DNA of 24,000 nt from Geminisphaera colitermitum TAV2 (GCF_000171235.2 NZ_ABEA03000006.1:14344-38343); one strand, 5' to 3'; counted from the stretch's first letter, positions 9,984 to 24,000 are shown. The notes: generated from the sequence alone by a model not told the origin. A program made the numbers and translations.

Positions 9984-10058
9984 GCCGATGTAGCTCAGTG
10001 GTAGAGCAGCGGTATCGTAAACCGCTGGTCGTCGGTTCGACTCCGACCATCGGCTCCA
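9984..10058 (+). tRNA. tRNA-Thr (anticodon CGU), CCA encoded
   Basis: Cloverleaf read by hand: acceptor GCCGATG/CATCGGC, D arm GCTC-AGTGGTA-GAGC, anticodon arm GCGGT-ATCGTAA-ACCGC (CGT), variable TGGTC, T arm GTCGG-TTCGACT-CCGAC, discriminator T, then CCA. Confidence 0.95.
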
Positions 10059-11284
10059 GTTTCGCAAAGCGATTCTTTGGGTTTTACGCTCATAATCTCC
10101 TGTAAGAAGCCATTTTGTGAAAGTTCGACTAATGAGGCACAAAGGGTGAGGAATTTTGATGTATCAGCAGTGCGCTCACTCGTGAGTGTGTCTTTCGCTG
10201 CTACATCGACGGGGTCTCCCAGCCACGGAAGTTTGATGATTTCCGAATGCAGGCCGATGGCGGGCATATCGGTGTAGATTTTCGCGGTCAGGTTCGCATC
10301 AGAATGTCCTAGAAACTCCTGCGCCGCCCGTTGGTTGATGCCTGCCCGGACGCCCATCGTCTGGAACGTCTTCCGAAAACTGTGAAAGGCGACGGTGCGG
10401 TTGAGTCCGTCGCGTTTCGGGATGCCGGCCGCTTTGATGTCCCGATCCAGCACGCGGAAATGGGGAAACTCCGGGAAAACTGGAGCGTCCGCCTTCGCAT
10501 CCTGCGGAGCGGCGGCGCGCAGCAATGCCGCCAGCCGGGGGTGCAACGGCAGGGGGCGCTTGGTCATGTCCTTTGTTGTTTCATCACGAACCAGCAAATA
10601 CGGCTGTTCTCCGGTCAGATGCAGGTCTCCCCATACCAGCGCCTGCGCCTCGCCCCTGCGGATGCCTGTATACGCAAGGAACCGATACAGGAGGCTGCGC
10701 GGGCCGCTCACCTCGAACAGGCGGGCGAGTTCTTCCGGGGTGAAAGCGCGGGTGTCGCGGACCTTTTGACCGCGAGTTTCGACATGGGGGACTTTGGCGA
10801 GGGGGTTGCGGGCGATGCGGTCCAGCCTCACCAGCCAGTTAAGGAAAATGCAGATGGATGCCTGATATTCGCGGACGGTTTTTGCCGCCAACTTGAGCGT
10901 GGAACGCCACTTTACAAACTGGTCTGCGCGGATGTCTGAAAGGCGTTTCCAGCCCGTTTCATTGAGGATTTTTTCGATGCAAAGGCGAGTAGTGCGAATA
11001 TGGCGCGGTGTGCGTTTGCGAGCCTGCAAATCGGCAACGAACTCGGTGAGCAAGGTGGTCAGCGGGAGGGCGGCGGTGTCGCGTTCGGTGCGCGGTGCAA
11101 TGATGCCCTCTTGCTCGCGCTGTTTTTCAACGATGATGTCGCGGAGCCGTTTGCGGGCAACGCGAACGTCGGGGGTGCCTAGGGCAACGGTGCGAGGTTT
11201 GTCGCCACGATTGAGGGCATAACGCCCGTAATACAGACGGGCGCGCTTGCCGTTGCGGAGGGGGCGGAAAACGTATTCGGTCAT
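9995..11284 (-). CDS. int: Tyrosine recombinase (phage integrase)
   Basis: Catalytic residues are readable: YTGIRRGE (Arg I), HSFRKTF (H-x-x-R), LGHSDANLTAKIYTD (His/Tyr). The N-terminal SAM-like domain has LTEFVADLQARKRTPRHI. The last ~21 codons are antisense to the tRNA. Confidence 0.9.
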   Translation of the reverse strand: MTEYVFRPLRNGKRARLYYGRYALNRGDKPRTVALGTPDVRVARKRLRDIIVEKQREQEGIIAPRTERDTAALPLTTLLTEFVADLQARKRTPRHIRTTRLCIEKILNETGWKRLSDIRADQFVKWRSTLKLAAKTVREYQASICIFLNWLVRLDRIARNPLAKVPHVETRGQKVRDTRAFTPEELARLFEVSGPRSLLYRFLAYTGIRRGEAQALVWGDLHLTGEQPYLLVRDETTKDMTKRPLPLHPRLAALLRAAAPQDAKADAPVFPEFPHFRVLDRDIKAAGIPKRDGLNRTVAFHSFRKTFQTMGVRAGINQRAAQEFLGHSDANLTAKIYTDMPAIGLHSEIIKLPWLGDPVDVAAKDTLTSERTADTSKFLTLCASLVELSQNGFLQEIMSVKPKESLCETGADGRSRTDDQRFTIPLLYH

Positions 11285-11285
11285 G

Positions 11286-11564
11286 TCAGCGCAGTTTGGT
11301 GAATTTGCCTTTGCTGTTCTCGATCCAGAACATCAAATCTTCCGCCCGGTATTGGTTGGAATTTCCGTGAAAACGGTAGTCACCAAAATCGTCAATCTGG
11401 CGGATGCGAAAGGCGCGGGGCTTGTTGTCGTCTCCTAAACCTTGGTAGTAGTATTTGGACGATTTCTTGATCGTCGCATAAAGGTCGAACGGACCTTTGC
11501 TAAAGCCAACAGGGGCGAGGTTGGCGGTTTCATCAACGGGGGGGAGTTCGGTTTGTGTGCTCAT
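11286..11564 (-). CDS. Hypothetical protein immediately upstream of int (possible excision/recombination directionality factor)
   Basis: 92 aa with plausible codon usage. The stop is 1 nt from the int start. No recognisable motif. Confidence 0.55.
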   Translation of the reverse strand: MSTQTELPPVDETANLAPVGFSKGPFDLYATIKKSSKYYYQGLGDDNKPRAFRIRQIDDFGDYRFHGNSNQYRAEDLMFWIENSKGKFTKLR

Positions 11565-11675
11565 TGCTTTGGTCGGGTTGTCTGGTCGGTATTTTTTTTT
11601 GGATACATTAAACCTCCCTCGCGCCGGGGCTTTGCCGACCAGAGCAAAGCACGCCGACGCGGGGAGGGTGAGTGG

Positions 11676-11975
11676 TCAGATTTCGCCGGGAGTGGGGGAT
11701 GCTTCGCCGGGTTTGGGGATTTGGGCGGCAACTTCGCCGGTGATGGGAAGGGCACGGCCAACGGGGCGGATTTGCAGGCCATGCACCTGCCAGCCTTGGG
11801 AATTGAGGGCGTTTTCGATGGAAACCATCGCGCTAAACAGTTCGGGCAACGAATGGGCGCGACGGTCGGAAATCGTGAAAAGAGGGATGAAACCACAAGG
11901 GCCAACTTCCTTGAGCACTACGGCAGGCTTTGGAGCCTTCTTGGTGGGTTTGGTTCGGGTAGGCGGGTTAGGCAT
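11676..11975 (-). CDS. Hypothetical small protein with Lys/Pro-rich N-terminus (candidate early regulator)
   Basis: 99 aa. Preferred over the overlapping 11561..11905 frame, which is Pro/Ser/Arg junk. Divergent from the RHH gene. N-terminal TKPTKKAPKP resembles the RHH protein tail TKAPKPTKKK. Confidence 0.55.
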   Translation of the reverse strand: MPNPPTRTKPTKKAPKPAVVLKEVGPCGFIPLFTISDRRAHSLPELFSAMVSIENALNSQGWQVHGLQIRPVGRALPITGEVAAQIPKPGEASPTPGEI

Positions 11976-12057
11976 AAGAATGCTTTGAGTCTAAACATCC
12001 TTGCCATGTCAACCTTTCTAACAGCGAAAAGATTGATAAACCTGCTATGATTGCTGC
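11976..12057. promoter_or_regulatory. Divergent regulatory (switch-like) region
   Basis: 82-bp AT-richer spacer between divergent genes. TATGAT (12046-12051) lies 6 nt before the ATG, suggesting a leaderless mRNA. Direct repeats TCTAAACA (11990-11997) and TCTAACA (12017-12023). Confidence 0.35.
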
Positions 12058-12363
12058 ATGGGAAAATCTAAAACTGCACAAATGCTTGGGGTTCATCTCG
12101 CTAACGACATTGTCGAAATGATCGAACGTCGTGCGTTGGTAATAGGCGTTACCAAGAGCCGTTTTGCGGCGATGGTATTCGAACACTGGCGGGCGGCAAA
12201 CTACCCGGCTATTTCCACCGTGGACAGCACGGCAAGGGCGATGGTTTTGCAGAGGATGAAAGAGGAAGCGGAAGGCTTCATTTCGGAGTCTGAGGCACAC
12301 GAGGCAAAGACCTCTGGTTCAAGGACGAAGGCTCCCAAGCCAACCAAGAAGAAAGCCGCATGA
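12058..12363 (+). CDS. Ribbon-helix-helix (CopG/Arc-like) DNA-binding protein, candidate repressor
   Basis: LGVHLANDIVEMIERRALVIGVTKSRFAAMVFEHW fits beta-strand-helix-helix. Basic KAPKPTKKKAA tail. This is the only plus-strand gene in the prophage. Confidence 0.6.
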   Translation: MGKSKTAQMLGVHLANDIVEMIERRALVIGVTKSRFAAMVFEHWRAANYPAISTVDSTARAMVLQRMKEEAEGFISESEAHEAKTSGSRTKAPKPTKKKAA

Positions 12364-12499
12364 TCCACGTCGATGCGAATCGTTGGCGAGAAGGCGCGGG
12401 CTGCGCGCAAACGCCGCCGCGCTACCGTTGCGGCTTATGCCTGAGTTGCCGTTACGCTAACCGGTCGGGTTGACAAGGCGGGGCAGGTGTGCCCTATTA

Positions 12500-12586: not shown

Positions 12587-12591
12587 ACCCT

Positions 12592-13098
12592 TCAGTTTTT
12601 ATACATCGTTTGGAAAACGAGTTTTTTCCGCCCCACCCTTACCTCCTCGATTACGGTGGTTACTCCGCTGGCGTCTTTGTAAAGGTATTCGATGGCTTCG
12701 AGGCTCCGGTGCGTTTTCTTCTGCGATTTCCTGACCTTTTGGGCGTTTTTTAGATAGTAGGGGATGCGCAGGATGTCTGCGACTGTGACGGGGAGTTTGT
12801 CTTTCCCATGCTTGTTCAGGGCATGGTTCACTTCATCAATGGCCACGGCATGGGCCTTGTATCCGTTCAGGTTAAGGCCAGTGAGTCCAAATAGTCTTTG
12901 CGCCTCGCTTGGAGTGATCGGCATGTAATCGACAAAATCGTCCTTTTGCCGGGTTGGACGCGGGCCAAGATACCAGCGGCGCAACACGGATTCGGGGCGT
13001 GTCCACCAAAACCAAATGCCGCCGCAAATGGCGGCGGCGAGGGTGGCGAGGGTGGCGAGGATGGCGAGGATGGCGACAATGGGCGCGTGTTTGCTCAT
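12592..13098 (-). CDS. N-terminally membrane-anchored protein with BECR/PBECR-like (phage RNase-toxin-like) C-terminal domain
   Basis: Start at MSKHAPIVAILAILATLATLAAAICGGIWFWW (TM). The C-terminal AIDEVNHALNKHGKDKLPVTVADILRIPYYLKN...VTTVIEEVRVGRKKLVFQTMYKN resembles the H-x3-KHG...IP...EEVR.GRK.L...T.YK pattern I recall from PBECR domains of polyvalent phage proteins. Confidence 0.45.
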   Translation of the reverse strand: MSKHAPIVAILAILATLATLAAAICGGIWFWWTRPESVLRRWYLGPRPTRQKDDFVDYMPITPSEAQRLFGLTGLNLNGYKAHAVAIDEVNHALNKHGKDKLPVTVADILRIPYYLKNAQKVRKSQKKTHRSLEAIEYLYKDASGVTTVIEEVRVGRKKLVFQTMYKN

Positions 13099-13664
13099 GC
13101 GGAAGGGGCGGGTTTTGCGCGAGTGAGGAGGTGCCACGCAATGAAAAACGCCCCTGCCACGGCCACAAGCACGCCCGCAATCCAGAGACCAGCGGGCGAG
13201 GAAAGCAGGTGGCAGACAGCGGCTCCTAGTCCCGCGCAGACAGCCGCAAGCCAATGCGCACGCCAGGCGAGGAGACCGGCCAGCGCGAGGCACGCGAGGG
13301 CGGCGAAGGTGTAAATGAGCACGCGCTTCCCCGTTGCTTGTTCAGCCGGGGAGGGGGGAGTGAAGGCTTGCGGTGCCGTGGCAGTCTCCTTGCGTGTAGT
13401 GAGTTTTACACTACTGTCTTTCGGGAGCTTGGCCGTGAATGTCCCCAGTGTTTCCGAAAACGTGACTTCCGTTCCTGCCGGGAGCGTGAAAGACGCCTCG
13501 CCGGTTTCGGCGGATGCCGTGGCAGGTTTCACCGCATCTCCAGTCTGTGAAACGCGGACGCCCCCGGACCGCGCAACGGCAGACGGAGGCTTGGCTTTGT
13601 GTGCGGTCTGGCAGGCCGGGAAAACCGCAAGGCACGCAAAAAGAACGAAGAAACGGGCGTTCAC
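13095..13664 (-). CDS. Lipoprotein with C-terminal TM helices (unimolecular-spanin-like architecture)
   Basis: GTG start overlaps the upstream stop (GTGA). Signal plus lipobox FACLAVFPAC, a Thr/Ala/Pro-rich periplasmic part, and a hydrophobic C-terminus (VLIYTFAALACLALAGLLAW..., LWIAGVLVAVAGAFFIAW). Confidence 0.6.
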   Translation of the reverse strand: MNARFFVLFACLAVFPACQTAHKAKPPSAVARSGGVRVSQTGDAVKPATASAETGEASFTLPAGTEVTFSETLGTFTAKLPKDSSVKLTTRKETATAPQAFTPPSPAEQATGKRVLIYTFAALACLALAGLLAWRAHWLAAVCAGLGAAVCHLLSSPAGLWIAGVLVAVAGAFFIAWHLLTRAKPAPSA

Positions 13665-13906
13665 GGATGCTTTGTCGTTTGGCGAACCAAGTCCGTCAGA
13701 ATCGCACGTAATTCCTCGTTTTCTTCGGCGAGGTTATCACATTCGCGGCGGAGGGCGGCGGTGTATTCAGGGTCAATCGAGTGTGAGTCCGAGAAGGCGT
13801 AATCTTCACGGCTTTCCTGCGTGGAGCATCCCGAAAGGACTAAAAAACCTGTGACGAACAAGGCGAAGCCTCCGATGTAGGTGGCAATGGTTGTGATCGT
13901 TCTCAT
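13661..13906 (-). CDS. Small lipoprotein with coiled-coil tail (spanin-like)
   Basis: 81 aa. Lipobox FLVLSGC. C-terminal EYTAALRRECDNLAEENEELRAILTDL. ATGA overlap with the upstream gene. Confidence 0.6.
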   Translation of the reverse strand: MRTITTIATYIGGFALFVTGFLVLSGCSTQESREDYAFSDSHSIDPEYTAALRRECDNLAEENEELRAILTDLVRQTTKHP

Positions 13907-14079
13907 TGTGTATTGTTTTTTTGGTTACGGATTTCGCGCCATTTTTGGACGCACGAAAGAATCATGAAGGCGGCGGTGGCGAGCCCGGCGAGGATGGACG
14001 CCACCGTTGAAACGTCGGTTAGCGCGAAGTCCACCGACAGGCCAAGCAGGCCGATGCAGAGTTTGTCGGTTGTATTCAT
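13903..14079 (-). CDS. Holin-like small 2-TM protein
   Basis: 58 aa from the internal ATG: MNTTDKLCIGLLGLSVDFAL...VASILAGLATAAFMILSCV, then the charged tail QKWREIRNQKNNTQ. ATGA overlaps on both sides. Confidence 0.6.
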   Translation of the reverse strand: MNTTDKLCIGLLGLSVDFALTDVSTVASILAGLATAAFMILSCVQKWREIRNQKNNTQ

Positions 14080-14525
14080 TTTTTGGTTTTTGAGAGTTTT
14101 CCAATCAGCCAGAAAGCGATCAAACCGACTGGCAGGACGGCGAGCAGCGTAAGCCATGCGCTGGCACTGGAGGTTTTGCCGGTGAGCACGTAGTTGACGT
14201 AACTTTCGCAATTACGGGTCAACCAATTGAATTTGGGCGGGTTGGAAGCAAACGCGACTGCTCTTGCCTCCATTTCCGGCGTCAGAGCAACCCCTTGATT
14301 TTCCACGAGTTTTCTCCCGTTGAAAAATTGACTTGTGCTTTCTCGCACAAGTCCAGTTCGCCCAAACGAGATTATCGTGTCGCTTGCAAATTGGATGCCA
14401 CTGTGACGAAAAAATGGAACGGTCCGGGCCGTGGCACGGATTACATTTATTCGCTTCGCCTGTGTCGGCAGAGGCGGCAGTCCACACACGGAAACCTCCG
14501 CCTCTTTTGTGTCTGCGTTAGTCAT
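14076..14525 (-). CDS. LRAT/NlpC-P60-like (H-box/NC) hydrolase with C-terminal TM anchor, candidate endolysin
   Basis: Start at MTNADTKEAE (ATGA overlap). His box FFRHSGIQFASDTIISF and Cys box NWLTRNCESYVNYVLTGK match the LRAT-type His...NCE arrangement. C-terminal WLTLLAVLPVGLIAFWLIG. Confidence 0.55.
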   Translation of the reverse strand: MTNADTKEAEVSVCGLPPLPTQAKRINVIRATARTVPFFRHSGIQFASDTIISFGRTGLVRESTSQFFNGRKLVENQGVALTPEMEARAVAFASNPPKFNWLTRNCESYVNYVLTGKTSSASAWLTLLAVLPVGLIAFWLIGKLSKTKK

Positions 14526-14935
14526 TTTTTGAGCACTCCTTTTGCTTTGAGTGCGCCGTCGATGTAGGGTTTGAGGAGCGTCAAAACCCAGATGCCGAGG
14601 GCGGCAAAACCGAGGAATTTCAACCAGCCGGGAATGGAGTTCCAAAAACCTTTTCCAACGGTGTCGATTGCGGTGTTGATGCGGCCCGGAAGTTCGCTGG
14701 CGGATTCGGCAAGCGCGGAGGGAATGCGGTCATTGACGGCTTCGCCAACGGTTGCGGAGAGGTCCGCGGTATCCGTGATGGATGCCATTTGTCGCTGAAA
14801 TTCGTCTTCTGAAAGAAGACCGTCCGCCCGTTGACGTTCGAGAATCGCAGCCTGTTCAGCGGCAATTTTCTCCGTGCGTTCCCGCTCTTTTTTACTCGTG
14901 AAGAGCCAGCCTGAAAATGAGTCTAACCATCCCAT
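14522..14935 (-). CDS. Membrane protein with SHOCT-like motif and C-terminal TM
   Basis: Start at MGWLDSFSGWLF. RQRADGLLSEDEFQRQMASI resembles SHOCT. C-terminal WLKFLGFAALGIWVLTLL. Confidence 0.5.
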   Translation of the reverse strand: MGWLDSFSGWLFTSKKERERTEKIAAEQAAILERQRADGLLSEDEFQRQMASITDTADLSATVGEAVNDRIPSALAESASELPGRINTAIDTVGKGFWNSIPGWLKFLGFAALGIWVLTLLKPYIDGALKAKGVLKK

Positions 14936-14958
14936 TGTAGTTGTTTCCTGTTTTGTAG

Positions 14959-16086
14959 TTAGTTTACCAATACGCGCCCCCACGAAATGGCCCAGTCAAC
15001 GGTGAGGGCGTTGTCGCTGTCCTTAACCTGCGTCTGGTCGAATTTGATGCGCAGCATGGGCCAGATCGTGTCGTAATAAGACCAGCCGAGGGCCATGCAT
15101 TTGATGTCCGTGCGGTTGCCGTCGTTGAGCGTGAACTCGCTTCGCCAGACGCGACGGTAGGAGCCCGCAACGTAGGGAAGGCGGGTGGCTGTCTTGCGTG
15201 ACTTTGTCCCCCCCAAAGCGAAATTATTGGCGGTGTTTGGGAGCGCGAATGCTTCCTCGCTGTTGCCAAGGAAGGTTTCAAATTCGTATTTATTCGGCGA
15301 AATCTGCGACGGCCAGCCAAGGTTTTCGAGTTGCACCTGTCCGCCGCCACCGGTCCAGAACGGGCCGGGCATGGCAACGGGAGAGAGGGGGGAAAGTGCG
15401 ATGTAGAGGTTGAGCACAACCTTGAGTTGCTGGCCGGGGACAAGTGTAACGCCGCCACCTTCCAGCACGTCGCGGCCAAACAGCGAGTTTGACGACTGGT
15501 AATAGTTCCACGACCAGCCGACTTCATGGAGTGTGACTTGCGTGGTGACGGCGTTGAAAATGAAGGTGCGTTTGCGGACAAGCTGGTTGTCCACGATGTT
15601 AACGGTGTTGTCGTCTCCCCCGGTTCCGTAAACGTCCGTGCGCATGGTTTCGGCGGTGAGGCCGGTTTGGTTGACATACCAGATCGTGCCCTTTGCCGGG
15701 GCCGGGAGTTCACGGGCGATGTCCACGGAGGCCGTCACTGTGTCCGCCACGGCCTGAATGCGCATTTCCTCGCCGGTATCCAGTTTCAAAAGACGCCCGA
15801 CGTCCTCATTGCTGAAAAACGCGGCGCTGGCCTTCACGGTGTTGCCGGTCTGGGTGAACGCGATGTTGCCGGAGTCGCGGCGGGTGGGGGTTGTGCCGGT
15901 GCCGACGACGGCAGCGCGGATTACGTCGTCCCAATGGTAGTTTTCGACAAGCGCGTTGAGGCCGTTGTCGAGGATGAGGTTTTTCTTCCAAGGCTGGCGG
16001 AGTTCTTCCGTGCCGTCCGGGTTTAGAACGGAAATTTTGTAGCGGATGCCGATTTGTTGTTTTGTGCTGGTTGAAATTTTTCTCAT
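14959..16086 (-). CDS. Hypothetical virion protein, beta-rich (possible spike/receptor-binding)
   Basis: 375 aa, the largest late-operon ORF. No TM and no enzymatic motif. Gly/Thr/Asn/Val-rich strands. Sits at the distal end of the structural operon. Confidence 0.5.
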   Translation of the reverse strand: MRKISTSTKQQIGIRYKISVLNPDGTEELRQPWKKNLILDNGLNALVENYHWDDVIRAAVVGTGTTPTRRDSGNIAFTQTGNTVKASAAFFSNEDVGRLLKLDTGEEMRIQAVADTVTASVDIARELPAPAKGTIWYVNQTGLTAETMRTDVYGTGGDDNTVNIVDNQLVRKRTFIFNAVTTQVTLHEVGWSWNYYQSSNSLFGRDVLEGGGVTLVPGQQLKVVLNLYIALSPLSPVAMPGPFWTGGGGQVQLENLGWPSQISPNKYEFETFLGNSEEAFALPNTANNFALGGTKSRKTATRLPYVAGSYRRVWRSEFTLNDGNRTDIKCMALGWSYYDTIWPMLRIKFDQTQVKDSDNALTVDWAISWGRVLVN

Positions 16087-16112: not shown

Positions 16113-16667
16113 TTACGCGTGGGGACCGTAGGCAAAAGCGTCAAGCGCAACGTCCGCCTTGGTGGTGTTGGCGGCGGCGATGTGCCCGGATGGGGTCAAT
16201 GATGCGGCGGACATGGCGACGGCTTGCGTGGCGTGTTCTTCGCCGGTTGCAGTCAGGGCCGGTTCGTAAAGGAGCGCGTCAAGACCGAGGGTTTGCGTGG
16301 CGTTTTTCGACAATGTCGGGCCGGTGGCAGGCTCGTAAGTCCATGCGGCAAGTCCAACGTTTTGCGAGGGGGTTTCAATCGGGGAGACAACAGCGGCGCG
16401 TTCATACAGTCCCCAGCACACGGCGCGGATGCCGGTGCCGCCAAAGCTGCGAATGCTGCCGTCCGCCATGCCGCGCACAACAGGTTCCATCTCCATGTCT
16501 TCCGTCGCGTCTTCGTTGCTGTCGATGCGCGTTACGGGGACATACAGGAGCGCATCGAGCGCGGCGGAGAGTTTCGCGGTTTCGCTCGCAAACGGCACGC
16601 GCCAGCCACGCCGCACATAGAGGAGCGGCGTGGGGATGCACTGGATTTGCGGGCGGGCGAAGATCAC
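16113..16667 (-). CDS. Hypothetical virion-associated protein with three LDA(L/F)xYxP repeats
   Basis: 184 aa with a GTG start. Repeats AKLSAALDALLYVPV, TQTLGLDALLYEPAL and KADVALDAFAYGPHA. Confidence 0.5.
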   Translation of the reverse strand: MIFARPQIQCIPTPLLYVRRGWRVPFASETAKLSAALDALLYVPVTRIDSNEDATEDMEMEPVVRGMADGSIRSFGGTGIRAVCWGLYERAAVVSPIETPSQNVGLAAWTYEPATGPTLSKNATQTLGLDALLYEPALTATGEEHATQAVAMSAASLTPSGHIAAANTTKADVALDAFAYGPHA

Positions 16668-16688
16668 GACGGAGGCGCGGTGTAGTGA

Positions 16689-16955
16689 TTACTTGGTGAC
16701 GGGTTTCGCGGCGGCGAGCGCGGCGGCAATGCCCTTGAGCGCGGCCACGTTGTCCGCTCCCAACGCGGCGGCAAGGTCTTCGCCGGTAATGGGGATCGGT
16801 TCGGATTGCGGAGCCCCCTGCGGACGCACGGCGGTTCCGTTTTCGAGCGCGTCAACCAGCTTGCCGATTTGCGCGGGGATGCTGTTGAGGACATTCACCG
16901 CTTGCGCGGCGAGTTGGGCGGCGGCGATGGCCGGAGTGATGTTTGCCTTAATCAT
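16689..16955 (-). CDS. Small Ala-rich helical protein (scaffold/assembly-like)
   Basis: ATG at 16955 preferred over TTG at 16985. MIKANITPAIAAAQLAAQAVNVLNSIPAQIGKLVDALE...AALKGIAAALAAAKPVTK. Confidence 0.5.
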   Translation of the reverse strand: MIKANITPAIAAAQLAAQAVNVLNSIPAQIGKLVDALENGTAVRPQGAPQSEPIPITGEDLAAALGADNVAALKGIAAALAAAKPVTK

Positions 16956-16994
16956 TATTTTGCTTTTGTTGTAGTTATTAACCAAATACTAAAA

Positions 16995-17684
16995 TCAGTA
17001 GAGGGGGCTAATAATGCCGTATTCGGCGAGCCGATCTGTAAGCGTGTTTACGCGGTCAATGACTTGGCTAAGCGGGGCATCGCTAGGAAGCTTGCTCAAC
17101 GTAAGGGGATTAGCTTCGGATTGAATGTCGAGGATTGCTTCCCCAAATATATTTACCACGCTCAGTCCCCCCAACAGCGTCGTAGGGCCATCGACGGAAA
17201 GCGGGGCAAAGACTTCTAAGTCAGATCGGATGGCTACGGGTGACAAAATATTCAAGAAATACTCCCCCCACTCTGCGACATAACCGCCCTCAGAGTTGTA
17301 GAGTATGCGGTTAGTCCAATCAATTGCCCCGACTGCGTATGCATCGTAGGCTATCCGTTCTTGCCAGTTGATCGCGACGACGTACCCGCTCAAATCGTAC
17401 AGTTCGCGCGTCCAGTGCCCGGCAGAGCGGATTCCCTCTCCGTCTGTCAGGTCCATTTGCCAGAGCGGAACAATCCCGTTCGAGCAGAGGACATTCCCCG
17501 GTTGACCGACCCCCATATCGTCCGTGGCGTCAAGGAACGGATTGCGCGGGGCGAAGTCTCCCAACAGCGTCGCAAGGGAGGCGCGGTTTCCACCGGGCGT
17601 GCCGGGGCGGGCGATTTCCACGCAATCGTCACCGGACAGGTCGAACAATTCCGGCAGATCAAAAATGGTTTTGTAGGATGGCAT
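16995..17684 (-). CDS. Fibre/receptor-binding-like protein
   Basis: 229 aa. The N-terminal FDLPELFDLSGDDCVEIARPG and C-terminal IDRVNTLTDRLAEYGIISP resemble the ends I associate with phage fibre or spike proteins. That is pattern memory only. Confidence 0.45.
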   Translation of the reverse strand: MPSYKTIFDLPELFDLSGDDCVEIARPGTPGGNRASLATLLGDFAPRNPFLDATDDMGVGQPGNVLCSNGIVPLWQMDLTDGEGIRSAGHWTRELYDLSGYVVAINWQERIAYDAYAVGAIDWTNRILYNSEGGYVAEWGEYFLNILSPVAIRSDLEVFAPLSVDGPTTLLGGLSVVNIFGEAILDIQSEANPLTLSKLPSDAPLSQVIDRVNTLTDRLAEYGIISPLY

Positions 17685-17694
17685 TGGTGCGAGT

Positions 17695-18285
17695 TTATGC
17701 GGTCCACCAGATTTCCGAAATCGTAGCGGCGAGGGGGGCGGTCTGCGGGTTGTGGATGCGGACGAATCCGCTCACGTGGTGCGTGATCGTCTCGTTGGCT
17801 CTCACAATGCCGGTTACGCCGTCGCTGGCGTCACGAAATTCCAGATACAGTTCGTTGCTCGTGTTGCTCACAACGACGGCCTTGCGACGCAGCAATGTGT
17901 TTTTGGGCGTGCCGAGCAAATCGACAAAACCGTTCGGCTGAATGATGACACTGCCACCGTTGGACGGGGCGAGCATTTCCGTGGGGGCTTCGATCTGGTC
18001 AAGCCGGTTGTCGGAGAACTTCACCACCCCGGCCCAAAATGAGACGAACATTTCTTTCTTCGTCGGGGAACGAAATTCGAGGCGCTCAAAAAACTCCGGG
18101 GCATCGAAGTCCAGACTCATTCCGCTTCGGAAAGTGGAATAAGGCATTGCGTCGATTTTGATTTCAACCGGGCCGGACGCGGAGAGTAGCGAGAAGTGAC
18201 GGCCATGCACCATTGCCACGCCGACTTGTCCCGGACCAGCGGGGATGACGACGTTTACGATGCTGCCTTGCTGGGAGGTTATCAT
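17695..18285 (-). CDS. Beta-rich hypothetical virion protein (possible vertex/penton, single jelly-roll)
   Basis: 196 aa. Alternating hydrophobic strands (HFSLLSASGPVEIKID, FERLEFRS, MFVSFWAGVVKF, VVVSNTSNELYLEFRD, FVRIHN). Directly follows the membrane-protein genes. Confidence 0.45.
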   Translation of the reverse strand: MITSQQGSIVNVVIPAGPGQVGVAMVHGRHFSLLSASGPVEIKIDAMPYSTFRSGMSLDFDAPEFFERLEFRSPTKKEMFVSFWAGVVKFSDNRLDQIEAPTEMLAPSNGGSVIIQPNGFVDLLGTPKNTLLRRKAVVVSNTSNELYLEFRDASDGVTGIVRANETITHHVSGFVRIHNPQTAPLAATISEIWWTA

Positions 18286-18289
18286 GGCT

Positions 18290-19105
18290 TTATTTGTGTT
18301 TCAGGAGGGCGAGGGCGATGAGGCCGGCAATGACCGCGCCAACGATCAGCTTGGTCTGAGTGGAGGTGTTTCCTTCATCTGCTGCGCCGATGGCGGTTCC
18401 CGCGCTCGTGATTGCGCTTTCAGCCGCATTGATGGACTGGTTTGAGGTCTGCCGTGCGAGGTTGATGTTTTCCAGCGAGGCGATGTGCATTTTGTCCATC
18501 GCGCCCATGACGCCTTGCAGGGCCGTGTCCATGACTTGCATGTTGGAACCGACTGCGAGGTTCATTGCCCGGTCTTGGAATCCCAGCGCGGTTCCAGCCA
18601 GTTCCATGTTTGAGCCAATGGCCGTGTTGAACATGTCTTTGCCGACTGCGAGCGCATCGGTGCCGAAACTTAGCGCGTCCCGGCCAAAATTCATCGCCTC
18701 TAGGGTGGTGGCGAGGTTGCCCCCGATGGCAGTGTTGGCGATGTCCTTTGTTGCCTCCATCGCGGACTGGTTGACCTTCGTGTTTTCCGTCAACGCGGTC
18801 AGCGAGGTCAGCAAGGAGCCTTCCATCGCGCTCTCCGTGAGTGTTCCGAGTTGTGAGGCGGAATCCCCGGCAAACTTGAACGCGGCGTCAACGGTGCCGT
18901 GGTCAGTGCTGGTGGTGACAATGCTGGTTGAAATGGTGTTGTTGTTTCCAACTTTGCCAGTGATTGCGCCGCTGTTGTCGTTGAGCGACTGGTCAACGGT
19001 GTTGCGCGAACCGGAGCCAATGCCAACGCCTTGATCCTGCACGGTTGCGCTTTGATCGTATGCCTTGGTGCCTGATTCTACTTTTGTGCTTCCGAAAAGT
19101 CCCAT
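18290..19105 (-). CDS. Tail-anchored membrane protein with internal ~23-aa repeats
   Basis: Start at MGLFGSTKVE (ATG 19105, 1 nt after the upstream stop). Repeats NTAIGGNLATTLEAM / NTAIGSNMELAGTAL / NLAVGSNMQVMDTAL. C-terminal TM KLIVGAVIAGLIALALL. Confidence 0.6.
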   Translation of the reverse strand: MGLFGSTKVESGTKAYDQSATVQDQGVGIGSGSRNTVDQSLNDNSGAITGKVGNNNTISTSIVTTSTDHGTVDAAFKFAGDSASQLGTLTESAMEGSLLTSLTALTENTKVNQSAMEATKDIANTAIGGNLATTLEAMNFGRDALSFGTDALAVGKDMFNTAIGSNMELAGTALGFQDRAMNLAVGSNMQVMDTALQGVMGAMDKMHIASLENINLARQTSNQSINAAESAITSAGTAIGAADEGNTSTQTKLIVGAVIAGLIALALLKHK

Positions 19106-19106: not shown

Positions 19107-19490
19107 TTATTTCCTCCGTTTTTTCCCGAAAATGAAACTGGCGAGCCCAAACGTGAACAGCATGAGCGCGAGCCCGCCGCCAACGATGAAGGCCCATGTA
19201 GTGCCAGACCAACTACTGACCGGTTGCGACACTGCCGCCAACGCCGCTTGCAGTGGTTTCTCTTGTGACGCGTTGGAAGAAGCGCCGTCTTTCGCAACGG
19301 ATGCCACCGCATCGGCAGAGCCGCTTGCGGAAACGTCCCGTTGCGTCGAAGAACTGGACGTTGAGATGTCTCCAGACCAACCCCCGTTCACGATTTTGGG
19401 CGAAAAGATAATCGTGCCTGAATTGCTCGTTGGCCCGACTGTCGTGTTTGATGCGAGGCTGTTGCTTCCGGCGATGTCTAGCCAACTCAT
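19107..19490 (-). CDS. Tail-anchored membrane protein, Ser/Thr-rich ectodomain
   Basis: Start at MSWLDIAG (ATG 19490, 4 nt after the upstream stop). C-terminal TWAFIVGGGLALMLFTFGLASFIFGKKRRK. Confidence 0.6.
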   Translation of the reverse strand: MSWLDIAGSNSLASNTTVGPTSNSGTIIFSPKIVNGGWSGDISTSSSSTQRDVSASGSADAVASVAKDGASSNASQEKPLQAALAAVSQPVSSWSGTTWAFIVGGGLALMLFTFGLASFIFGKKRRK

Positions 19491-19494: not shown

Positions 19495-19782
19495 TTAACG
19501 ACGTTTGAAAATGAGCACGGCCCCGACAACGGCCAGAATCACGCCACCAGCGGCGGCGGCGATTTTCCAGATGGTGTTGCTCGTTTGTGTTTTCGTCCCG
19601 GTGCCACCAGCGGCATTGCCAACGGCTCCGGCAGTGGTTGCGGCCTGTTCTGCCAGCTTTTGCGCGGCGGCGGCCTTGGCCTGCGCTTCCGCCAGCTTTT
19701 CGGCCACTTTCGCCTGGCCGTAAGCGGTAGCCATTTCTTTGCCGCTGTCGAAAAGTCCCCCGACAAAATCTCCAAAGTCCAT
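19495..19782 (-). CDS. Tail-anchored membrane protein, Ala-rich helical
   Basis: 95 aa. AEKLAEAQAKAAAAQKLAEQAA helix, then TM IWKIAAAAGGVILAVVGAVLIFKRR. Confidence 0.65.
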   Translation of the reverse strand: MDFGDFVGGLFDSGKEMATAYGQAKVAEKLAEAQAKAAAAQKLAEQAATTAGAVGNAAGGTGTKTQTSNTIWKIAAAAGGVILAVVGAVLIFKRR

Positions 19783-19876: not shown

Positions 19877-20758
19877 TCAGTAGCTGCCTTGAAGCGATTC
19901 GTTCAGGATCGTGACGGCCCCGGCTGTCGGTGAATGGATGCGGACGTTAAGCGAGCGACGGCCAATGATGGCATCGGCGGTTCCGTATTCATCGAAGGGG
20001 ATGGGGAACGTCCACACGCTGGCGGACATGTTGAGATCAGCCAACGCAAGGGCGTTGGTCTCCGCGTCCACGTCGAAATAGGACACGTCGTCGGCGAGCA
20101 CTTCCACGCGGTTGATTGCGCTGCCGTCCTGTTTTTGGAGAAACAGGCGGTTGATGGGCTGGTTGAGCGGCAGGGTGGTGAAGTTGTAAACGCCAGCCGA
20201 AATCGGCTGAGTGAACGTGGTCTGATGCATGATCGACTGGAGGAACGATCCGCCTTCCGGGATGGAGGGACTGCCAATCCAGTTGTCCACGCCGTTGATG
20301 CGGTAAGGAATGTTCCAGTCGTGCGCCTCGTAAGCCGTGATTGTGAGACCAGCGGCCTGCGCAGGCGTGAGGACTCCGGCGCGCACAAACATCTGAATTT
20401 CAAACGAGCGGACAAGCGCGGCGGGAGTGGGCCATGCGCCACGATACATCTGTTGCGGCGTTTCCTGCCACGGCTCCACAAAGTAAATGGGAATTTCGTC
20501 GTCGGCGACGGTCAGGTTGTTGAAGCGGGCGAGATTGCGCAGGATGGTGGCATCAACTTCGCGGACCGCCGCACCGTTGATGTTGATTTTGATTTCACCG
20601 ATAAGCTGTTCGACGGTGACGGGATTGGCGACGTCGGCGGGAATGCCAATTTTGTATTTCGCCCAGTGGTAGCGCGGCCCAACGGTCATTTTGGTATAGC
20701 AGAATGCGCCGGGGACGGGACTCGTGATGCCCGCAACGGGCTGTTTGATTGTCGGCAT
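19877..20758 (-). CDS. Candidate major capsid protein, two tandem beta-rich halves (double-jelly-roll-like, PM2 P2-size)
   Basis: 293 aa with no TM. The two halves share a pattern: IGEIKININGAAVREVDATILRNLARFNNL / INRVEVLADDVSYFDVDAETNALALADLNM, IPIYFVEPW / WTFPIPFDEY, and SFEIQMFVRAG / SLNVRIHSPTAG. Confidence 0.55.
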   Translation of the reverse strand: MPTIKQPVAGITSPVPGAFCYTKMTVGPRYHWAKYKIGIPADVANPVTVEQLIGEIKININGAAVREVDATILRNLARFNNLTVADDEIPIYFVEPWQETPQQMYRGAWPTPAALVRSFEIQMFVRAGVLTPAQAAGLTITAYEAHDWNIPYRINGVDNWIGSPSIPEGGSFLQSIMHQTTFTQPISAGVYNFTTLPLNQPINRLFLQKQDGSAINRVEVLADDVSYFDVDAETNALALADLNMSASVWTFPIPFDEYGTADAIIGRRSLNVRIHSPTAGAVTILNESLQGSY

Positions 20759-20806
20759 GGTAGTTGTTTCGGTTGTGTGTTGTAGCGTTTTTCCGATACA
20801 GACGGA

Positions 20807-20941
20807 TTAGGCGGATGCGGCGGCTTTGCTGCCAGTCACGGCTTTTCCAACAGCGGGGACGCGGTTGATGAGGAACAAACCGACGATCACGCCAACGGCG
20901 GCGGTCACGACGGGAATCACGTAAACGAGGAGTTTCTTCAT
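20807..20941 (-). CDS. Small single-TM protein, first gene of the late operon
   Basis: 44 aa from the internal ATG: MKKLLVYVIPVVTAAVGVIVGLFLINRVPAVGKAVTGSKAAASA. Confidence 0.55.
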   Translation of the reverse strand: MKKLLVYVIPVVTAAVGVIVGLFLINRVPAVGKAVTGSKAAASA

Positions 20942-21097: not shown

Positions 21098-21108
21098 TGG
21101 TTGGACGT

Positions 21109-21137: not shown

Positions 21138-21202
21138 GGGTTATATGTGTATTCTGTTTTTGGCTACCTTGGCGTTCTATAAACGAACGCCCATTCCCAG
21201 AA

Positions 21203-21400
21203 CTAGGTGTTACGCTGACGCGCTACGATCTCACTAATCTGCCGACCTATTGCCTTGGATCGGAGACGGTGGTTCAGATATTGTTCTCGCTGCACATGGT
21301 ACATCCCTGTGCGCAAAAGGCGTCTCCGCATTGCGCCATGCATGGCGGCGCACGACACGTAGACCACCTCGTCCCCATATATTGGTATTGGTTTTTTCAT
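21203..21400 (-). CDS. Small basic hypothetical protein
   Basis: 65 aa, ATG 24 nt after the upstream stop, followed by the terminator. Lower GC than its neighbours. No motif. Confidence 0.4.
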   Translation of the reverse strand: MKKPIPIYGDEVVYVSCAAMHGAMRRRLLRTGMYHVQREQYLNHRLRSKAIGRQISEIVARQRNT

Positions 21401-21424
21401 CGTGAAATTGCGTAACCAGCCGCG

Positions 21425-21709
21425 TCACCGAATGCCTCCGGCATCGGTGCGCTCGGTGTTCAGAGGAGGGATAATCATGAGTCCGCCGCAATCGGCGCAT
21501 TCGTAGATCTCGCCATCGGCATCCGCGACTTCGTGATCTTCGGCCACTCGATAGCGGCCAGCGTCATCCGAGGTTGCGCCGCAATCGGCGCACCGCGCAT
21601 TTCCGGGGATGTGCTCACCCGGTGCCGGGATATATGCCCGGTGATAATTATCGCGCAGCCAACCCTCAGAACCAGCCGGTTGCGCCAATGTCTCATTGTC
21701 ATTCGCCAT
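21425..21709 (-). CDS. Zn-ribbon protein (two CADCG knuckles), candidate transcription factor
   Basis: 94 aa. NARCADCGATSDD...(27 aa)...YECADCGGLM. Confidence 0.55.
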   Translation of the reverse strand: MANDNETLAQPAGSEGWLRDNYHRAYIPAPGEHIPGNARCADCGATSDDAGRYRVAEDHEVADADGEIYECADCGGLMIIPPLNTERTDAGGIR

Positions 21710-21971
21710 GTCGCACCTCCGGGTTAGACCTGTTTTTTTGGCCGACTGAAAAGCCGGTCATCCATGCTTCACGAAGCAGGCCAGAATCGAACTCCACTGG
21801 GGGCACCGTGTTTCCGCGCTCGCCGTCATAAACACCAAGGTCGAAAGCGATGTGTTCTTGCTCAGTGTGTCCGCAATCAGGGGGACAACCTCCGAGGTCG
21901 GGAATGTGCGCCGGTCTAACCAGAGCGCAGGAGGCAACGGGCGGTGCCGTAGTTGTGGTTTCGATACTCAT
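21699..21971 (-). CDS. Hypothetical small Cys/His-containing protein
   Basis: 90 aa. GGCPPDCGHTEQEH. 11-nt overlap with the downstream gene. Confidence 0.5.
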   Translation of the reverse strand: MSIETTTTAPPVASCALVRPAHIPDLGGCPPDCGHTEQEHIAFDLGVYDGERGNTVPPVEFDSGLLREAWMTGFSVGQKNRSNPEVRHGE

Positions 21972-22014
21972 AATTTCCGTGCCTCCTCTGAGGTGTTGGG
22001 CGGACCAAGTGTTT

Positions 22015-22536
22015 TCATAGTTTTAGTTTTCGTTTCACAATCGGAGAACCGGGGACGTAATGAAGGAACTCGTAGCTTTTTGCCGGGAGGTGTTGGGCGG
22101 CGAGCAAGCCGTTTTCCATGAAGGTCTCAGCCCAAAGCTCCGCCCCTTTTGCTGGTTGGCGGAAAAGGAAAACTTCGGTGAGGTTTTGGCGCATACCGGG
22201 CAGTAAATCGGTGGCGGAATGGCAAAGGACGTAGAGCAAATGCCCGTTGTGCCGGATGCGCGTAAAGAGCCATGACAGCGAGCGATCCCGGTCAATCGTG
22301 GCGGATGCGTCTTCGATCCATACGCAACAATTCCGCGAGCGTTCCACACTCAGGCAAAACCGGTCTTTGTCGTTTGTGACAAAGGAGCCTCGCGGCCATG
22401 CGTTGGTTTCAATTTGAGGATCGAAAACGATGTGCCGCCGCCCTTGCAAAACGGTAATCGCCCCCGCGAGTGAATGCGCGAGGGTGGATTTGCCGCACTC
22501 GGAAGGCCCGGCTATGGCAACGCGAACACTGGCCAT
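22015..22536 (-). CDS. Small P-loop NTPase, candidate genome-packaging ATPase
   Basis: 173 aa. Walker A AIAGPSECGKST, Walker B NCCVWIEDAS. Far too short for a large terminase. Start overlaps the upstream stop (TAATG). Confidence 0.6.
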   Translation of the reverse strand: MASVRVAIAGPSECGKSTLAHSLAGAITVLQGRRHIVFDPQIETNAWPRGSFVTNDKDRFCLSVERSRNCCVWIEDASATIDRDRSLSWLFTRIRHNGHLLYVLCHSATDLLPGMRQNLTEVFLFRQPAKGAELWAETFMENGLLAAQHLPAKSYEFLHYVPGSPIVKRKLKL

Positions 22537-22808
22537 TATTCGGCCCTCCCTTCCGGTTTTGGGGCGGTGTTTTCAGCGTTTAAGATGTGAGGCAGTTGGG
22601 GTCGATAGCTCAGCAAAATGACGATGAAAATGAGGACTAAAACCAGTTTTACCGGGGACCAAGGACCGGGCAAGCAGGCCCAAAAGAGGAAACTGCCTCC
22701 GGCCAAAACCGCGAGCGGATAAAACGTGCAAAGCAGCGTGTAAACGAGCCCGGTAAGCCCGCCAAAGCGGAGAGTGTTATGGGCGTGGAGATTGATGATT
22801 GCATTCAT
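22536..22808 (-). CDS. Small polytopic membrane protein
   Basis: 90 aa with three hydrophobic segments (GLVYTLLCTFYPLAVLAGGSFLFWACL, VKLVLVLIFIVILL). Confidence 0.6.
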   Translation of the reverse strand: MNAIINLHAHNTLRFGGLTGLVYTLLCTFYPLAVLAGGSFLFWACLPGPWSPVKLVLVLIFIVILLSYRPQLPHILNAENTAPKPEGRAE

Positions 22809-22849
22809 TGTGTATTGTATTTTTGGTTACGTGTTGCGGTTGATTGCGG

Positions 22850-23779
22850 TCAAAAAACGGGATTTCCGGTGTTGCGGAACTGGGCCGGGACTTCCGGTGT
22901 GCGCGGCGCGTGTTCGGAAGGAACCGCAACCGGGGATGAGGAAGGGTCCACATGCGGCGTCGCGGGTGTCGCGGTGGCGGTATTTGCGGAAACGGTGCGG
23001 GGGGGGGCGGCGGCGGCAACCGGTTTGGGCTTTTTACCAAACCAGCTTTTCCACCAGCTTGCCAGTTTCGCCGACACACCCGGTTTTTGCGCGGTTGTCT
23101 CCACGTAAAGCCCCCAAAGCATGAGGAGCAAAACCAGCCCGGTTGCGACCCAACCTTTGCGCATGAGGTAAGCGGAGGTGCCGTCAACGAGCGCCTTGTG
23201 TTCCGCTGGTGTGGGGGTGGTTTCTTCCGGGTGTCCTGTGACAAAACCAAGTCCGGCATACGTGAGGCGGCAGACGGATTCAGCGGTTTTTTTTGCCGCA
23301 AGTTCCCGCGCTTCCGGTGTCTGCCCGTCGTCTGTTTTGCCCGGTTCCGTGCCAGAGGCCGTTTCTGTGGCGGTTTCCCCCGGTTCCTGTCCGGGGGCGG
23401 CTCCATTTCCTTTTGGGATAAACAGGTCGCTTTCCGGTGCAGAAACGGTGGTTTGTGCGGTTGTTTGCGCGGGAGAACCGCCCGCGTTTGCGGTGTCCCC
23501 GGTTTTGCGGGGGCGTCCGCCTTTCTGGTTTTTCCACCGTCCGATTTTATCTTTTTCCGGGCGGAATTTTTTGGGGTCAAACTTCCGCCCCAAGCTGTCC
23601 AGTTCGTCCAAGCGGTGGGCGCTTGCCTCGCTTTGTTCACTGGCACCGGTCGGAGCGGAAGAAACGGGTTTGCCGTCAACGGTAGTGGTCGCTTTGGGAG
23701 CACGTGCCAGCGCATCCGCGGCGAGGTTCGTGGCGTCCGTTATAACGGGCGGTTTTGTGTTTTCGGTTTCGATGTCCAT
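22850..23779 (-). CDS. Low-complexity Thr/Ala/Pro/Gly-rich protein with one TM helix
   Basis: 309 aa. Chosen over the two overlapping Arg/Pro-rich frames. Basic segment GRKFDPKKFRPEKDKIGRWKNQKGGRPRK. TM GWVATGLVLLLMLWGLYV. Confidence 0.55.
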   Translation of the reverse strand: MDIETENTKPPVITDATNLAADALARAPKATTTVDGKPVSSAPTGASEQSEASAHRLDELDSLGRKFDPKKFRPEKDKIGRWKNQKGGRPRKTGDTANAGGSPAQTTAQTTVSAPESDLFIPKGNGAAPGQEPGETATETASGTEPGKTDDGQTPEARELAAKKTAESVCRLTYAGLGFVTGHPEETTPTPAEHKALVDGTSAYLMRKGWVATGLVLLLMLWGLYVETTAQKPGVSAKLASWWKSWFGKKPKPVAAAAPPRTVSANTATATPATPHVDPSSSPVAVPSEHAPRTPEVPAQFRNTGNPVF

Positions 23780-23794
23780 AGGTGGAAAAATGGG

Positions 23795-23941
23795 TTAGGG
23801 GAAAAGCGGCGAATTGGCCTTGATGAGCATGAATGCGCTTTCAGCACGCATCCCTTGGCGACGGTAACGGCGGTAACGCTGTATCCGTTTGTATCGGCGT
23901 TTTAATTCACTGCGTTGCTCTCGAATTTCGGCGGTTTTCAT
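23795..23941 (-). CDS. Possible 48-aa Arg-rich protein (not in the ORF track)
   Basis: Read by hand on the minus strand: MKTAEIREQRSELKRRYKRIQRYRRYRRQGMRAESAFMLIKANSPLFP. The stop is 15 nt before the next ATG. Confidence 0.3.
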   Translation of the reverse strand: MKTAEIREQRSELKRRYKRIQRYRRYRRQGMRAESAFMLIKANSPLFP

Positions 23942-24000
23942 GGTCAAAATGGGCAGTTAAACCCCGCACATCCCCTCACATTCGTTACCAAACATTTCCA

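Follow-up and report, generated by a model that had tools for sequence, protein, structure and literature searches.

Tailless membrane-containing phages are under-sampled, and none has been cultured for Verrucomicrobia; in the literature searched, no cultured or experimentally characterised virus of the PM2-like kind was found for this group. The closest described systems are prophages. A survey of gut metagenomes found Vinavirales prophages mostly in Alphaproteobacteria and Verrucomicrobia, and placed those of Verrucomicrobia (Opitutae) in clade A of the major capsid protein (MCP) tree (Yutin et al., 2022; PMC9502842, Viruses 14:1842). That tree includes 'Geminisphaera colitermitum WP_157837245', and the prophage on the Geminisphaera colitermitum contig NZ_ABEA03000188, hereafter the sibling, serves as an annotated representative (Yutin et al., 2022). 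The vertex of such particles has been described for NO16, a non-tailed, PM2-related vibriophage, in which a flexible link connects the shell-embedded proximal jelly roll of the penton base GP14 to a distal one (PLoS Pathog 2026; PDB 9t9r/9t9v). The subject of the present analysis is a stretch of 24,000 nucleotides from Geminisphaera colitermitum TAV2 (NZ_ABEA03000006.1:14344-38343), referred to as the window. Positions 9984..24000, together with some sequence beyond, very probably constitute a prophage of a temperate, tailless icosahedral double-stranded DNA virus, PM2-like (Varidnaviria, Vinavirales), in the chromosome of this termite-gut verrucomicrobium (Opitutaceae).

NCBI lists the sibling MCP, WP_157837245.1, under the name 'major capsid protein P2'; it lies on a contig different from that of the window and is 28% identical to the window MCP. 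The window proteins are absent from the available part of the supplementary data of the census (Yutin et al., 2022), and the window element is thus a second, more divergent Vinavirales prophage in Geminisphaera colitermitum. Besides this census, no papers on phages or prophages of the species were found. An original prediction, made from the window sequence alone, had implied that the host was new for such viruses. This does not hold, since Vinavirales prophages of Verrucomicrobia, including the sibling in the same species, were catalogued in 2022 (PMC9502842); the window element is a new, divergent representative, and it leaves the known picture of the lineage unchanged.

Capsid, packaging and vertex genes

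Related sequences used for comparison are the element of Opitutaceae TAV4 (L003, LXWT02000001.1) and its second assembly (L004), a contig of an Opitutaceae metagenome-assembled genome (MAG; L008) and an IMG/VR contig (L011). The genes that carry the assignment are the following.

22536..22808, minus strand: 90-amino-acid (aa) protein with two transmembrane helices, overlapping the ATPase start, in the position of PM2 gp h, an assembly factor (hydropathy and position)
22015..22536, minus strand: genome-packaging ATPase of PM2 P9/Autolykiviridae type, 173 aa, WP_043582138.1 (tblastn, phmmer, alignment)
20807..20941, minus strand: 44-aa single-transmembrane protein (open reading frame, ORF, of 64/44 aa) in the PM2 P7 position (hydropathy; resembles the 43-aa sibling gene _26; 48% identical in L011)
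19877..20758, minus strand: PM2-type double-jelly-roll (DJR) MCP, 293 aa, WP_043582136.1 (Pfam, profile, AlphaFold2 model, Foldseek)
19495..19782, minus strand: 95-aa tail-anchored protein in the PM2 P3 position (C-terminal transmembrane helix; synteny)
19107..19487, minus strand: 126-aa tail-anchored protein (ORF of 140/126 aa; C-terminal transmembrane helix; 31-47% identical in L003, L008 and L011)
18290..19105, minus strand: 271-aa tail-anchored protein (ORF of 340/271 aa) in the position of PM2 gp j (P10) (C-terminal transmembrane helix)
17695..18285, minus strand: penton base, 196 aa (profile, AlphaFold2 model, BFVD, 'cons_s' homology)
16995..17684, minus strand: 229-aa candidate spike, its N-terminal anchor conserved and its body variable (99.6% identical in TAV4)

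On the evidence of profiles and of a structure model, the 293-aa protein is unambiguously assigned as a PM2-type DJR MCP. The NCBI entry WP_043582136.1 is annotated as 'hypothetical protein'. Its Pfam matches stand in PM2 coat order, P2_N (2e-3) covering residues 50-125 and P2_C (2.2e-5) residues 179-290; both score just below threshold, P2_C with 24.8 against a 25-bit cut-off. When 1.84 billion representatives were searched exhaustively with HMMER, 117 homologues were returned (29 at E<=1e-10), nearly all of 264-285 aa; the best is 34% identical, and the nearest relatives are Opitutaceae proteins. P2_C is present in 57 of the 61 aligned sequences and P2_N in 49. Searched against the PDB, the family profile matches the 'Double jelly roll capsid protein' of NO16 (9t9v) at 6e-25 and PM2 P2 (2vvf) at 1.3e-20. 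The AlphaFold2 model, with a predicted local distance difference test (pLDDT) score of 95 and a predicted template modelling (TM) score of 0.90, contains two beta-barrels, in agreement with the original description of a beta-rich protein built of two similar halves. Its best PDB match by Foldseek is PM2 P2 (2vvf_A; E 2.5e-18, TM 0.78/0.84), with 14% sequence identity over the structural alignment, and the remaining 49 matches listed are all DJR capsid proteins (PBCV-1, STIV, PRD1, iridovirus, EhV-201). The structural match to PRD1 P3 (E ~2e-8, TM 0.6/0.5) is much weaker than that to PM2 P2. An HK97-fold or non-viral top match, which the original prediction had named in advance as the outcome that would speak against it, did not appear.

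With the single sequence as query, tblastn against phage records gave no match, a word-seeded homologue search found only the protein itself, and a direct search of PDB sequences gave no informative match. Identity is 31-34% to the best MAG match, 28% to the sibling (BLASTP) and 28% to L011. Divergent DJR capsid proteins of this kind fall below Pfam and NCBI thresholds and stay labelled 'hypothetical'. The alignment of 61 sequences shows two insertions in this protein alone (residues 129-134 and 154-166), which the 60 homologues lack; the longer (154-166) is modelled as a small beta-hairpin at lower confidence.

The packaging ATPase supports the same placement. GPSECGKS forms its Walker A motif and VWIED a Walker B-like one, as the original prediction of a 173-aa Walker A/B ATPase had stated. 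Among 50,697 phage records, tblastn gave 5 matches, all of them Autolykiviridae packaging ATPases (best 9e-11, 86% coverage, 25-30% identity), and phmmer, which was run for the window proteins on a comparison set of 30 proteins, gave 5e-16. The protein can be aligned over its full length to the Autolykiviridae ATPases, to PM2 P9 and to the 'ATP' family published for prophages of Verrucomicrobia; both Walker motifs and R95 are conserved. A direct search of PDB sequences gave no informative match. The gene sits just upstream of the MCP gene, and its product is a small ATPase of the FtsK/HerA class, as is characteristic of Vinavirales. A phmmer match of the ATPase to PM2 P6 (E 0.016, 5.9 bits) was judged to be noise.

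The vertex-like protein of the original prediction (17695..18285) has three database homologues only. In the PDB sequence set, the sole match of its profile is the NO16 'Penton base (GP14)' (E 0.004), which is still at the top when a fifth homologue is added (E 0.009); the match spans only the proximal penton domain. The best BFVD structural matches of the AlphaFold2 model are Autolykiviridae proteins of 187 aa (2e-9) and 201 aa (3e-7), and the sibling's published 'cons_s' spike/penton protein aligns with it at 36% identity (7e-33). The model (pLDDT 73) consists of beta-sandwich domains at residues 7-86 and 112-195 with a low-confidence linker (90-110) between them, an arrangement that fits the published description of GP14. 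From sequence and model, the 196-aa protein is thus predicted to be a two-domain penton base like that of NO16. The adjoining candidate spike matches the NO16 spike GP13 (235 aa, N-terminal stalk) in position and size, and only its residues 7-48 are conserved in L008.

Hydropathy bears out the small transmembrane and tail-anchored proteins that had been predicted around the MCP (ORFs of 64/44, 95, 140/126 and 340/271 aa), and adds the 90-aa protein with two helices upstream of the ATPase. The 126-aa protein begins with MSWLDIAGSNS, matching the sibling gene _23, and the 271-aa protein matches PM2 gp j by phmmer (2.2e-5) and is 30% identical to a 288-aa protein of L008. Homology of the 90-aa protein to PM2 gp h was considered and set aside, as position alone speaks for it, with no sequence match in Pfam, PHROG or phmmer searches.

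Read along the minus strand, the order is two-transmembrane protein, ATPase, small transmembrane protein, MCP, three tail-anchored proteins, penton base, spike with accessory proteins, and small membrane or lipoprotein genes. It matches the maps of PM2, an autolykivirus and the sibling. The element therefore has what distinguishes Vinavirales, namely a DJR MCP, a packaging ATPase upstream of it, a jelly-roll penton and this late-operon order with membrane proteins, and the lineage originally proposed (PM2/corticovirus-like, double-jelly-roll) is borne out by MCP, ATPase, penton and gene order alike. Among the ORFs of 10-24 kb, none matched a Pfam, PHROG or NCBIfam model for the HK97-fold capsid, large terminase, portal, tape measure, tube or sheath of Caudoviricetes; the only related matches are a weak one of the ATPase to a terminase PHROG, at the level of the P-loop, and that of the 375-aa protein to a 'tail fiber' PHROG.

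Further genes belong to the same minus-strand run.

22850..23779, minus strand: 309-aa low-complexity protein with one transmembrane helix (30% identical to a 272-aa protein of L008 in the same position)
21203..21971, minus strand: three small ORFs (65, 94 and 90 aa) occupying a slot of variable cargo, with the ATPase on one side and the P7-like gene on the other (weak zinc-ribbon matches)
16689..16985, minus strand: 98-aa (or 88-aa) protein inside a block of ~100% identity shared with TAV4 (100% identical to the TAV4 homologue)
16113..16667, minus strand: 184-aa protein, probably vertex-associated (69% identical in L003, 29% in L008, 27% in L011)
14959..16086, minus strand: 375-aa beta-rich protein, candidate for a fibre-like or accessory vertex protein (phrog_4176 'tail fiber protein', 3.7e-23; 51-77% identical in L003, L008 and L011)

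The cargo slot of the TAV4 element holds a DNA methylase between ATPase and MCP. In the window, the 94-aa ORF of the slot has a CxxC...CxxC pattern, and the 90-aa ORF (21699-21971, minus strand) is 95.5% identical in the IMG/VR contig L011 (1-267), whose MCP is only 28% identical. Each relative examined has conserved versions of the 98-, 184- and 375-aa proteins, and an enlarged vertex apparatus may be formed by the latter two. No tblastn match to the 375-aa protein was found in phage records, and its direct search against PDB sequences was uninformative. It is conserved far better among relatives (51-77%) than the MCP (25-34%), a pattern unexpected for receptor binding and one that hints at a role as an enzyme or structural component.

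Insertion site, candidate lysis genes and cargo

The left boundary of the element is a tRNA gene, the only one detected in the window by ARAGORN; it and the genes up to the structural operon are as follows.

9984..10058, plus strand: tRNA-Thr (anticodon CGT), integration target, with the attL side at its 3' end and the G+C shift beginning here
9995..11284, minus strand: tyrosine integrase, 429-aa ORF (Pfam Phage_integrase 2e-15, phrog_1 3e-40)
11286..11564, minus strand: 92-aa protein (phrog_21559, 1.4e-6, no assigned function)
12058..12363, plus strand: 101-aa protein, the only plus-strand gene (34% identical TAV4 homologue, there likewise opposite to the late genes)
12592..13098, minus strand: 168-aa protein combining a transmembrane helix at the N-terminus with a toxin-like nuclease domain, PBECR3, at the C-terminus (Pfam 9.8e-12, above cut-off)
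13095..13664, minus strand: 189-aa membrane protein whose N-terminus looks like a signal sequence, followed by three C-terminal transmembrane helices (hydropathy)
13661..13906, minus strand: 81-aa lipoprotein with lipobox LSGC and a coiled-coil C-terminus (phrog_3671 4.3e-5; weak leucine-zipper-type Pfam matches; transmembrane helix)
13903..14079, minus strand: 58-aa single-transmembrane protein, candidate holin (transmembrane helix; ATGA overlap with the upstream gene; 33% identical to a 62-aa TAV4 homologue)
14076..14525, minus strand: 149-aa orphan with 'RH...NCESY' motifs and a C-terminal transmembrane anchor (weak Pfam LRAT match, E 0.021)
14522..14983, minus strand: 153-aa protein (or shorter) with a C-terminal transmembrane helix (38-50% identical in L003, L008 and L011; conserved in all relatives)

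The integrase is the last gene in the late-gene direction, and its own 3' end overlaps tRNA-Thr. G+C content is 62-65% left of 10000 and 53-60% from 10 kb to the window end. Left of the tRNA lie host genes for TerC, DUF1573, DUF1634 and an Rsm22-like methyltransferase, together with a transposase fragment. The methyltransferase gene, directly upstream of the tRNA (8790-9920, plus strand), encodes an internal run of at least eight glycines, and the fragment, of a DDE transposase (Pfam DDE_Tnp_1, 4e-7), is found at the left window edge (37-504, plus strand). The prophage predicted at tRNA-Thr without tailed-phage hallmarks is in this way recovered, with an integrase adjoining the tRNA and no terminase, portal or tail family match. 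The ORF map likewise agrees with the predicted ~14 kb of almost uniformly minus-strand genes: every plausible gene from 11.3 to 24 kb is on the minus strand except the 101-aa ORF, the largest ORF besides the integrase encodes 375 aa, and neighbouring genes are often coupled via ATGA start/stop overlaps.

The element runs past 24000, and a Logan contig extends the sequence by 979 bases. The next gene rightward (window equivalent 23957-24892, minus strand; 88-1023 in the Logan contig L001) encodes a 311-aa protein matching phrog_424 'phosphoadenosine phosphosulfate (PAPS) reductase' (4.5e-45), with no Pfam or NCBIfam match. Tailed-phage families also lack a match in the extension. A repeat of the 3' end of tRNA-Thr (attR), which the original prediction placed outside the window, is present neither in the window nor in the 979 bases. 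Probably several further kb beyond 24000 belong to the prophage, and a putative replication protein of 528-573 aa should lie a few kb further right, as judged from L008 and L003. The corresponding upstream proteins of these relatives (528 aa in L003, 573 aa in L008) have only a weak Rep_1 match (9e-4) and no PHROG match. The Logan contigs L001, L002 and L010 (SRR6478738, SRR6478749 and SRR6478744) are short assemblies from three related sequencing runs that carry pieces of the window prophage and the sibling prophage at 99.9-100% identity, and these runs could reveal expression or excision.

The small membrane proteins of 153, 149, 58, 81 and 189 aa are mostly joined by ATGA overlaps and plausibly form a lysis module. 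The lysis cassette of the original prediction stands as regards small transmembrane proteins and one clear lipoprotein (LSGC, 13661..13906); it falls short in that no recognised endolysin domain occurs in it. The 81-aa lipoprotein may act on the outer membrane in lysis, with a role like that of a spanin or of PM2 P18, and the 189-aa protein, which has no Pfam or PHROG family match, is a candidate lysis or membrane factor. A u-spanin reading of the latter (13095..13664) was dropped in view of its atypical lipobox (FPAC) and three C-terminal transmembrane helices. With motifs read by eye, the 149-aa orphan resembles a permuted NlpC/P60 (LRAT-like) hydrolase, and it could be the missing lysin of Verrucomicrobia prophages or, alternatively, a phospholipase. 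A word-seeded search of 5.8 billion proteins retrieved only the orphan itself, and no PDB match was found, so the lysin reading stays a lead. The orphan gene is inserted between two genes that are adjacent to each other in the TAV4 element.

Nearer the integrase, the PBECR3 gene, whose ATG at 13098 overlaps the stop codon of the upstream gene, is likely to be cargo. The 101-aa protein has no family match and is possibly a regulator or antitoxin, judging from a ribbon-helix-helix look noted by eye. The PBECR3 gene converges on this plus-strand ORF, and the TAV4 homologue of the latter adjoins a PemK-like toxin. The pair may represent toxin-antitoxin or superinfection-exclusion cargo.

Relatives and alternative readings

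The TAV4 element, whose locus was found via a 99.6% identical 229-aa protein, is collinear with the window element. Its capsid module is overall 25-40% identical to that of the window. By protein, identity is 37% for the ATPase, 25% for the MCP, 36-48% for the membrane proteins, 64% for the penton and 99.6% for the spike, and 100%, 69% and 77% for the 98-, 184- and 375-aa proteins, respectively. At the DNA level, ~1.2 kb (window ~16614-17813) are ~100% identical, a block consisting of the last ~45 penton codons, the spike gene, the 98-aa gene and the first codons of the 184-aa gene. DNA identity drops stepwise on either side: it is 57-87% left of the block, and rightward it falls to 81%, 72% and then <55% beyond 18013. 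The distal penton domain outside the block is nearly identical to that of TAV4 at the protein level (DNA 72-81%), whereas the proximal half is about 40% identical, and protein divergence thus starts at the inter-domain linker. These alignments indicate that the host-recognition unit (distal penton plus spike) is a cassette that recombines as such, and it may be swapped with unrelated capsid lineages at the flexible penton linker. The shared spike cassette beside different capsid modules is a concrete example of the exchange of receptor-binding modules in these simple viruses.

L008 and L011 have the same architecture in different mosaics. In L008, an integrase of 39-46% identity follows the late operon with the orientation seen in the window, and no tail or portal genes were found in these relatives of 14-21 kb (18-21 kb for L003, L004 and L008). 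L008 holds two integrase pieces (1557-2390 and 17887-18558), a C-terminal fragment on the left, upstream of the putative replication gene, and an N-terminal part running off the right end, which may reflect tandem elements or a permuted assembly.

By analogy with PM2, PRD1 and NO16, MCP trimers would assemble, after excision and replication, around a vesicle of host membrane into which the small viral membrane proteins are inserted. Five-fold vertices would be plugged by the proximal jelly roll of the penton, whose distal domain would carry the host-binding spike, while the ATPase would pump the genome into the membrane-lined procapsid. The transmembrane and lipoprotein genes at 13.1-14.5 kb would then release the particles, with the LRAT/NlpC-P60-like orphan as a possible lysin; the host may be lysed by a lysin type new for these prophages, a membrane-anchored LRAT/NlpC-P60-like protein of 149 aa. 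Tentatively, the window element could be an intact, inducible virus of the cultivable strain TAV2. It would in that case be the first isolated varidnavirus of Verrucomicrobiota, with an MCP divergence that would justify a new family-level lineage in Vinavirales. As the TAV2 isolate can be cultivated, induction could give the first laboratory system for such a virus-host pair.

Several points weigh against a PM2-like temperate virus as set out above. The lipid membrane, the particle shape and inducibility are deduced here from genes. The penton assignment has marginal sequence statistics (E 0.004-0.009) and a model of medium confidence (pLDDT 73), for which Foldseek against the PDB returned generic bicupins only. 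The window ends before the right end of the element, attR and the replication gene. No recognised endolysin domain was found in the window ORFs, nor PM2-type regulators P13-P16 among the window proteins. Recognisable lysins and the regulators P15, P16 and TR_Z1 are also lacking from the Verrucomicrobia prophages of the census, for which possible inactivity was raised (Yutin et al., 2022; PMC9502842).

These points bear most on the alternative that survives best, in which the locus is a prophage of Vinavirales type reduced to a defective or domesticated remnant that makes no infectious particles. We consider this unlikely, if well worth keeping in view. The missing lysin and P15/P16-type regulators, the inactivity suggested in the census (PMC9502842), the replication genes and attR outside the sequence seen and the toxin-like cargo (PBECR3) are all in keeping with a remnant. 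However, the core genes are all full-length ORFs with tight ATGA coupling, and a related mosaic is present in an IMG/VR viral contig. The ~1.2-kb block of ~100% DNA identity to the TAV4 prophage, with highly diverged flanks, argues for recent exchange between circulating viruses.

It is improbable that the locus is a composite, with the integrase and the genes at 11.3-13.1 kb forming a separate tRNA-associated island that abuts the structural operon. Those genes, which include the PBECR3 nuclease and the plus-strand ORF, have no PM2 counterpart, as such an island would explain. In L008, however, the same late operon is directly followed by a 39% identical integrase of like orientation, and the 101-aa plus-strand ORF has a homologue at the equivalent TAV4 position; moreover, G+C is uniformly lower from 10 to 24 kb, and the tRNA 3' end is not repeated inside the window. 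A tailed (Caudoviricetes) prophage with its head and tail genes beyond 24000 and the 293-aa protein as an accessory beta-barrel protein is highly improbable: its only tailed-phage-related matches are the 375-aa protein to a 'tail fiber' PHROG (3.7e-23) and the ATPase, weakly and at the level of the P-loop, to a terminase PHROG (2.8e-4), whereas the MCP is unambiguously of PM2-type DJR fold, the 173-aa ATPase matches Autolykiviridae packaging ATPases only, the 979 bases past the window encode a PAPS-reductase-like protein and not a terminase, and the 18-21 kb relatives have no tail or portal families.

Comparison with known systems

Compared with the described families, the prophage of a PM2-like virus in the window belongs to Vinavirales without fitting the narrower classes. 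The PM2-specific genes and close MCP similarity of Corticoviridae sensu stricto are lacking, and among the window proteins phmmer (E<0.02) detected no homologues of PM2 P5, P6, P12 or P13-P16, the marginal ATPase-P6 match aside. Tectiviridae differ as well, given the weaker match to PRD1 P3, no polymerase in the window and integration by a tyrosine integrase.

Autolykiviridae (Vibrio phage 1.008.O and relatives) supply the only significant phage-database match, through their packaging ATPase, and have the same order of ATPase, transmembrane protein, MCP and transmembrane proteins. However, they are lytic, with linear ~10-kb genomes, a protein-primed DNA polymerase and a terminal protein, whereas the window element has a tyrosine integrase and no polymerase was seen in the window. 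PM2 shares its late-operon order (gp h-P9-P7-P2-P3/P4/P8-gp j-P1-lysis factors) with the minus strand of the window, including the small membrane proteins around the MCP gene. Its P1 is one protein of 335 aa, while penton and spike are separate genes in the window; its genome has 10 kb, while the window element exceeds 14 kb and is integrated by a tyrosine integrase; and its host is a marine gammaproteobacterium instead of a verrucomicrobium.

NO16 resembles the window element at the vertex, with a separate penton base of ~180-196 aa made of two jelly rolls and a flexible link, and an adjoining spike gene of ~230 aa with an N-terminal anchor. Both are temperate, and the NO16 MCP is the best PDB sequence match of the window MCP family profile. 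The penton relation to NO16 is marginal (E 0.004), the host of NO16 is Vibrio, and the window element has the conserved 184-aa and 375-aa proteins in addition.

The closest systems are the Verrucomicrobia Vinavirales prophages of MCP clade A (the sibling, TAV1, TAV4 and TAV5), which occur in the same host family and in one case in the same species. They share with the window element the order of ATPase, ~44-aa transmembrane protein, MCP, tail-anchored proteins, ~190-aa 'cons_s' penton and variable spike, and like it they have no recognisable lysin or P15/P16 regulators. The window element differs from them in its cargo, which comprises three small ORFs instead of a methylase, the PBECR3 nuclease and the LRAT-like orphan. 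It differs further in its MCP, which is 28% identical to that of the sibling and 25% to that of TAV4, has two private insertions and scores below the Pfam threshold.

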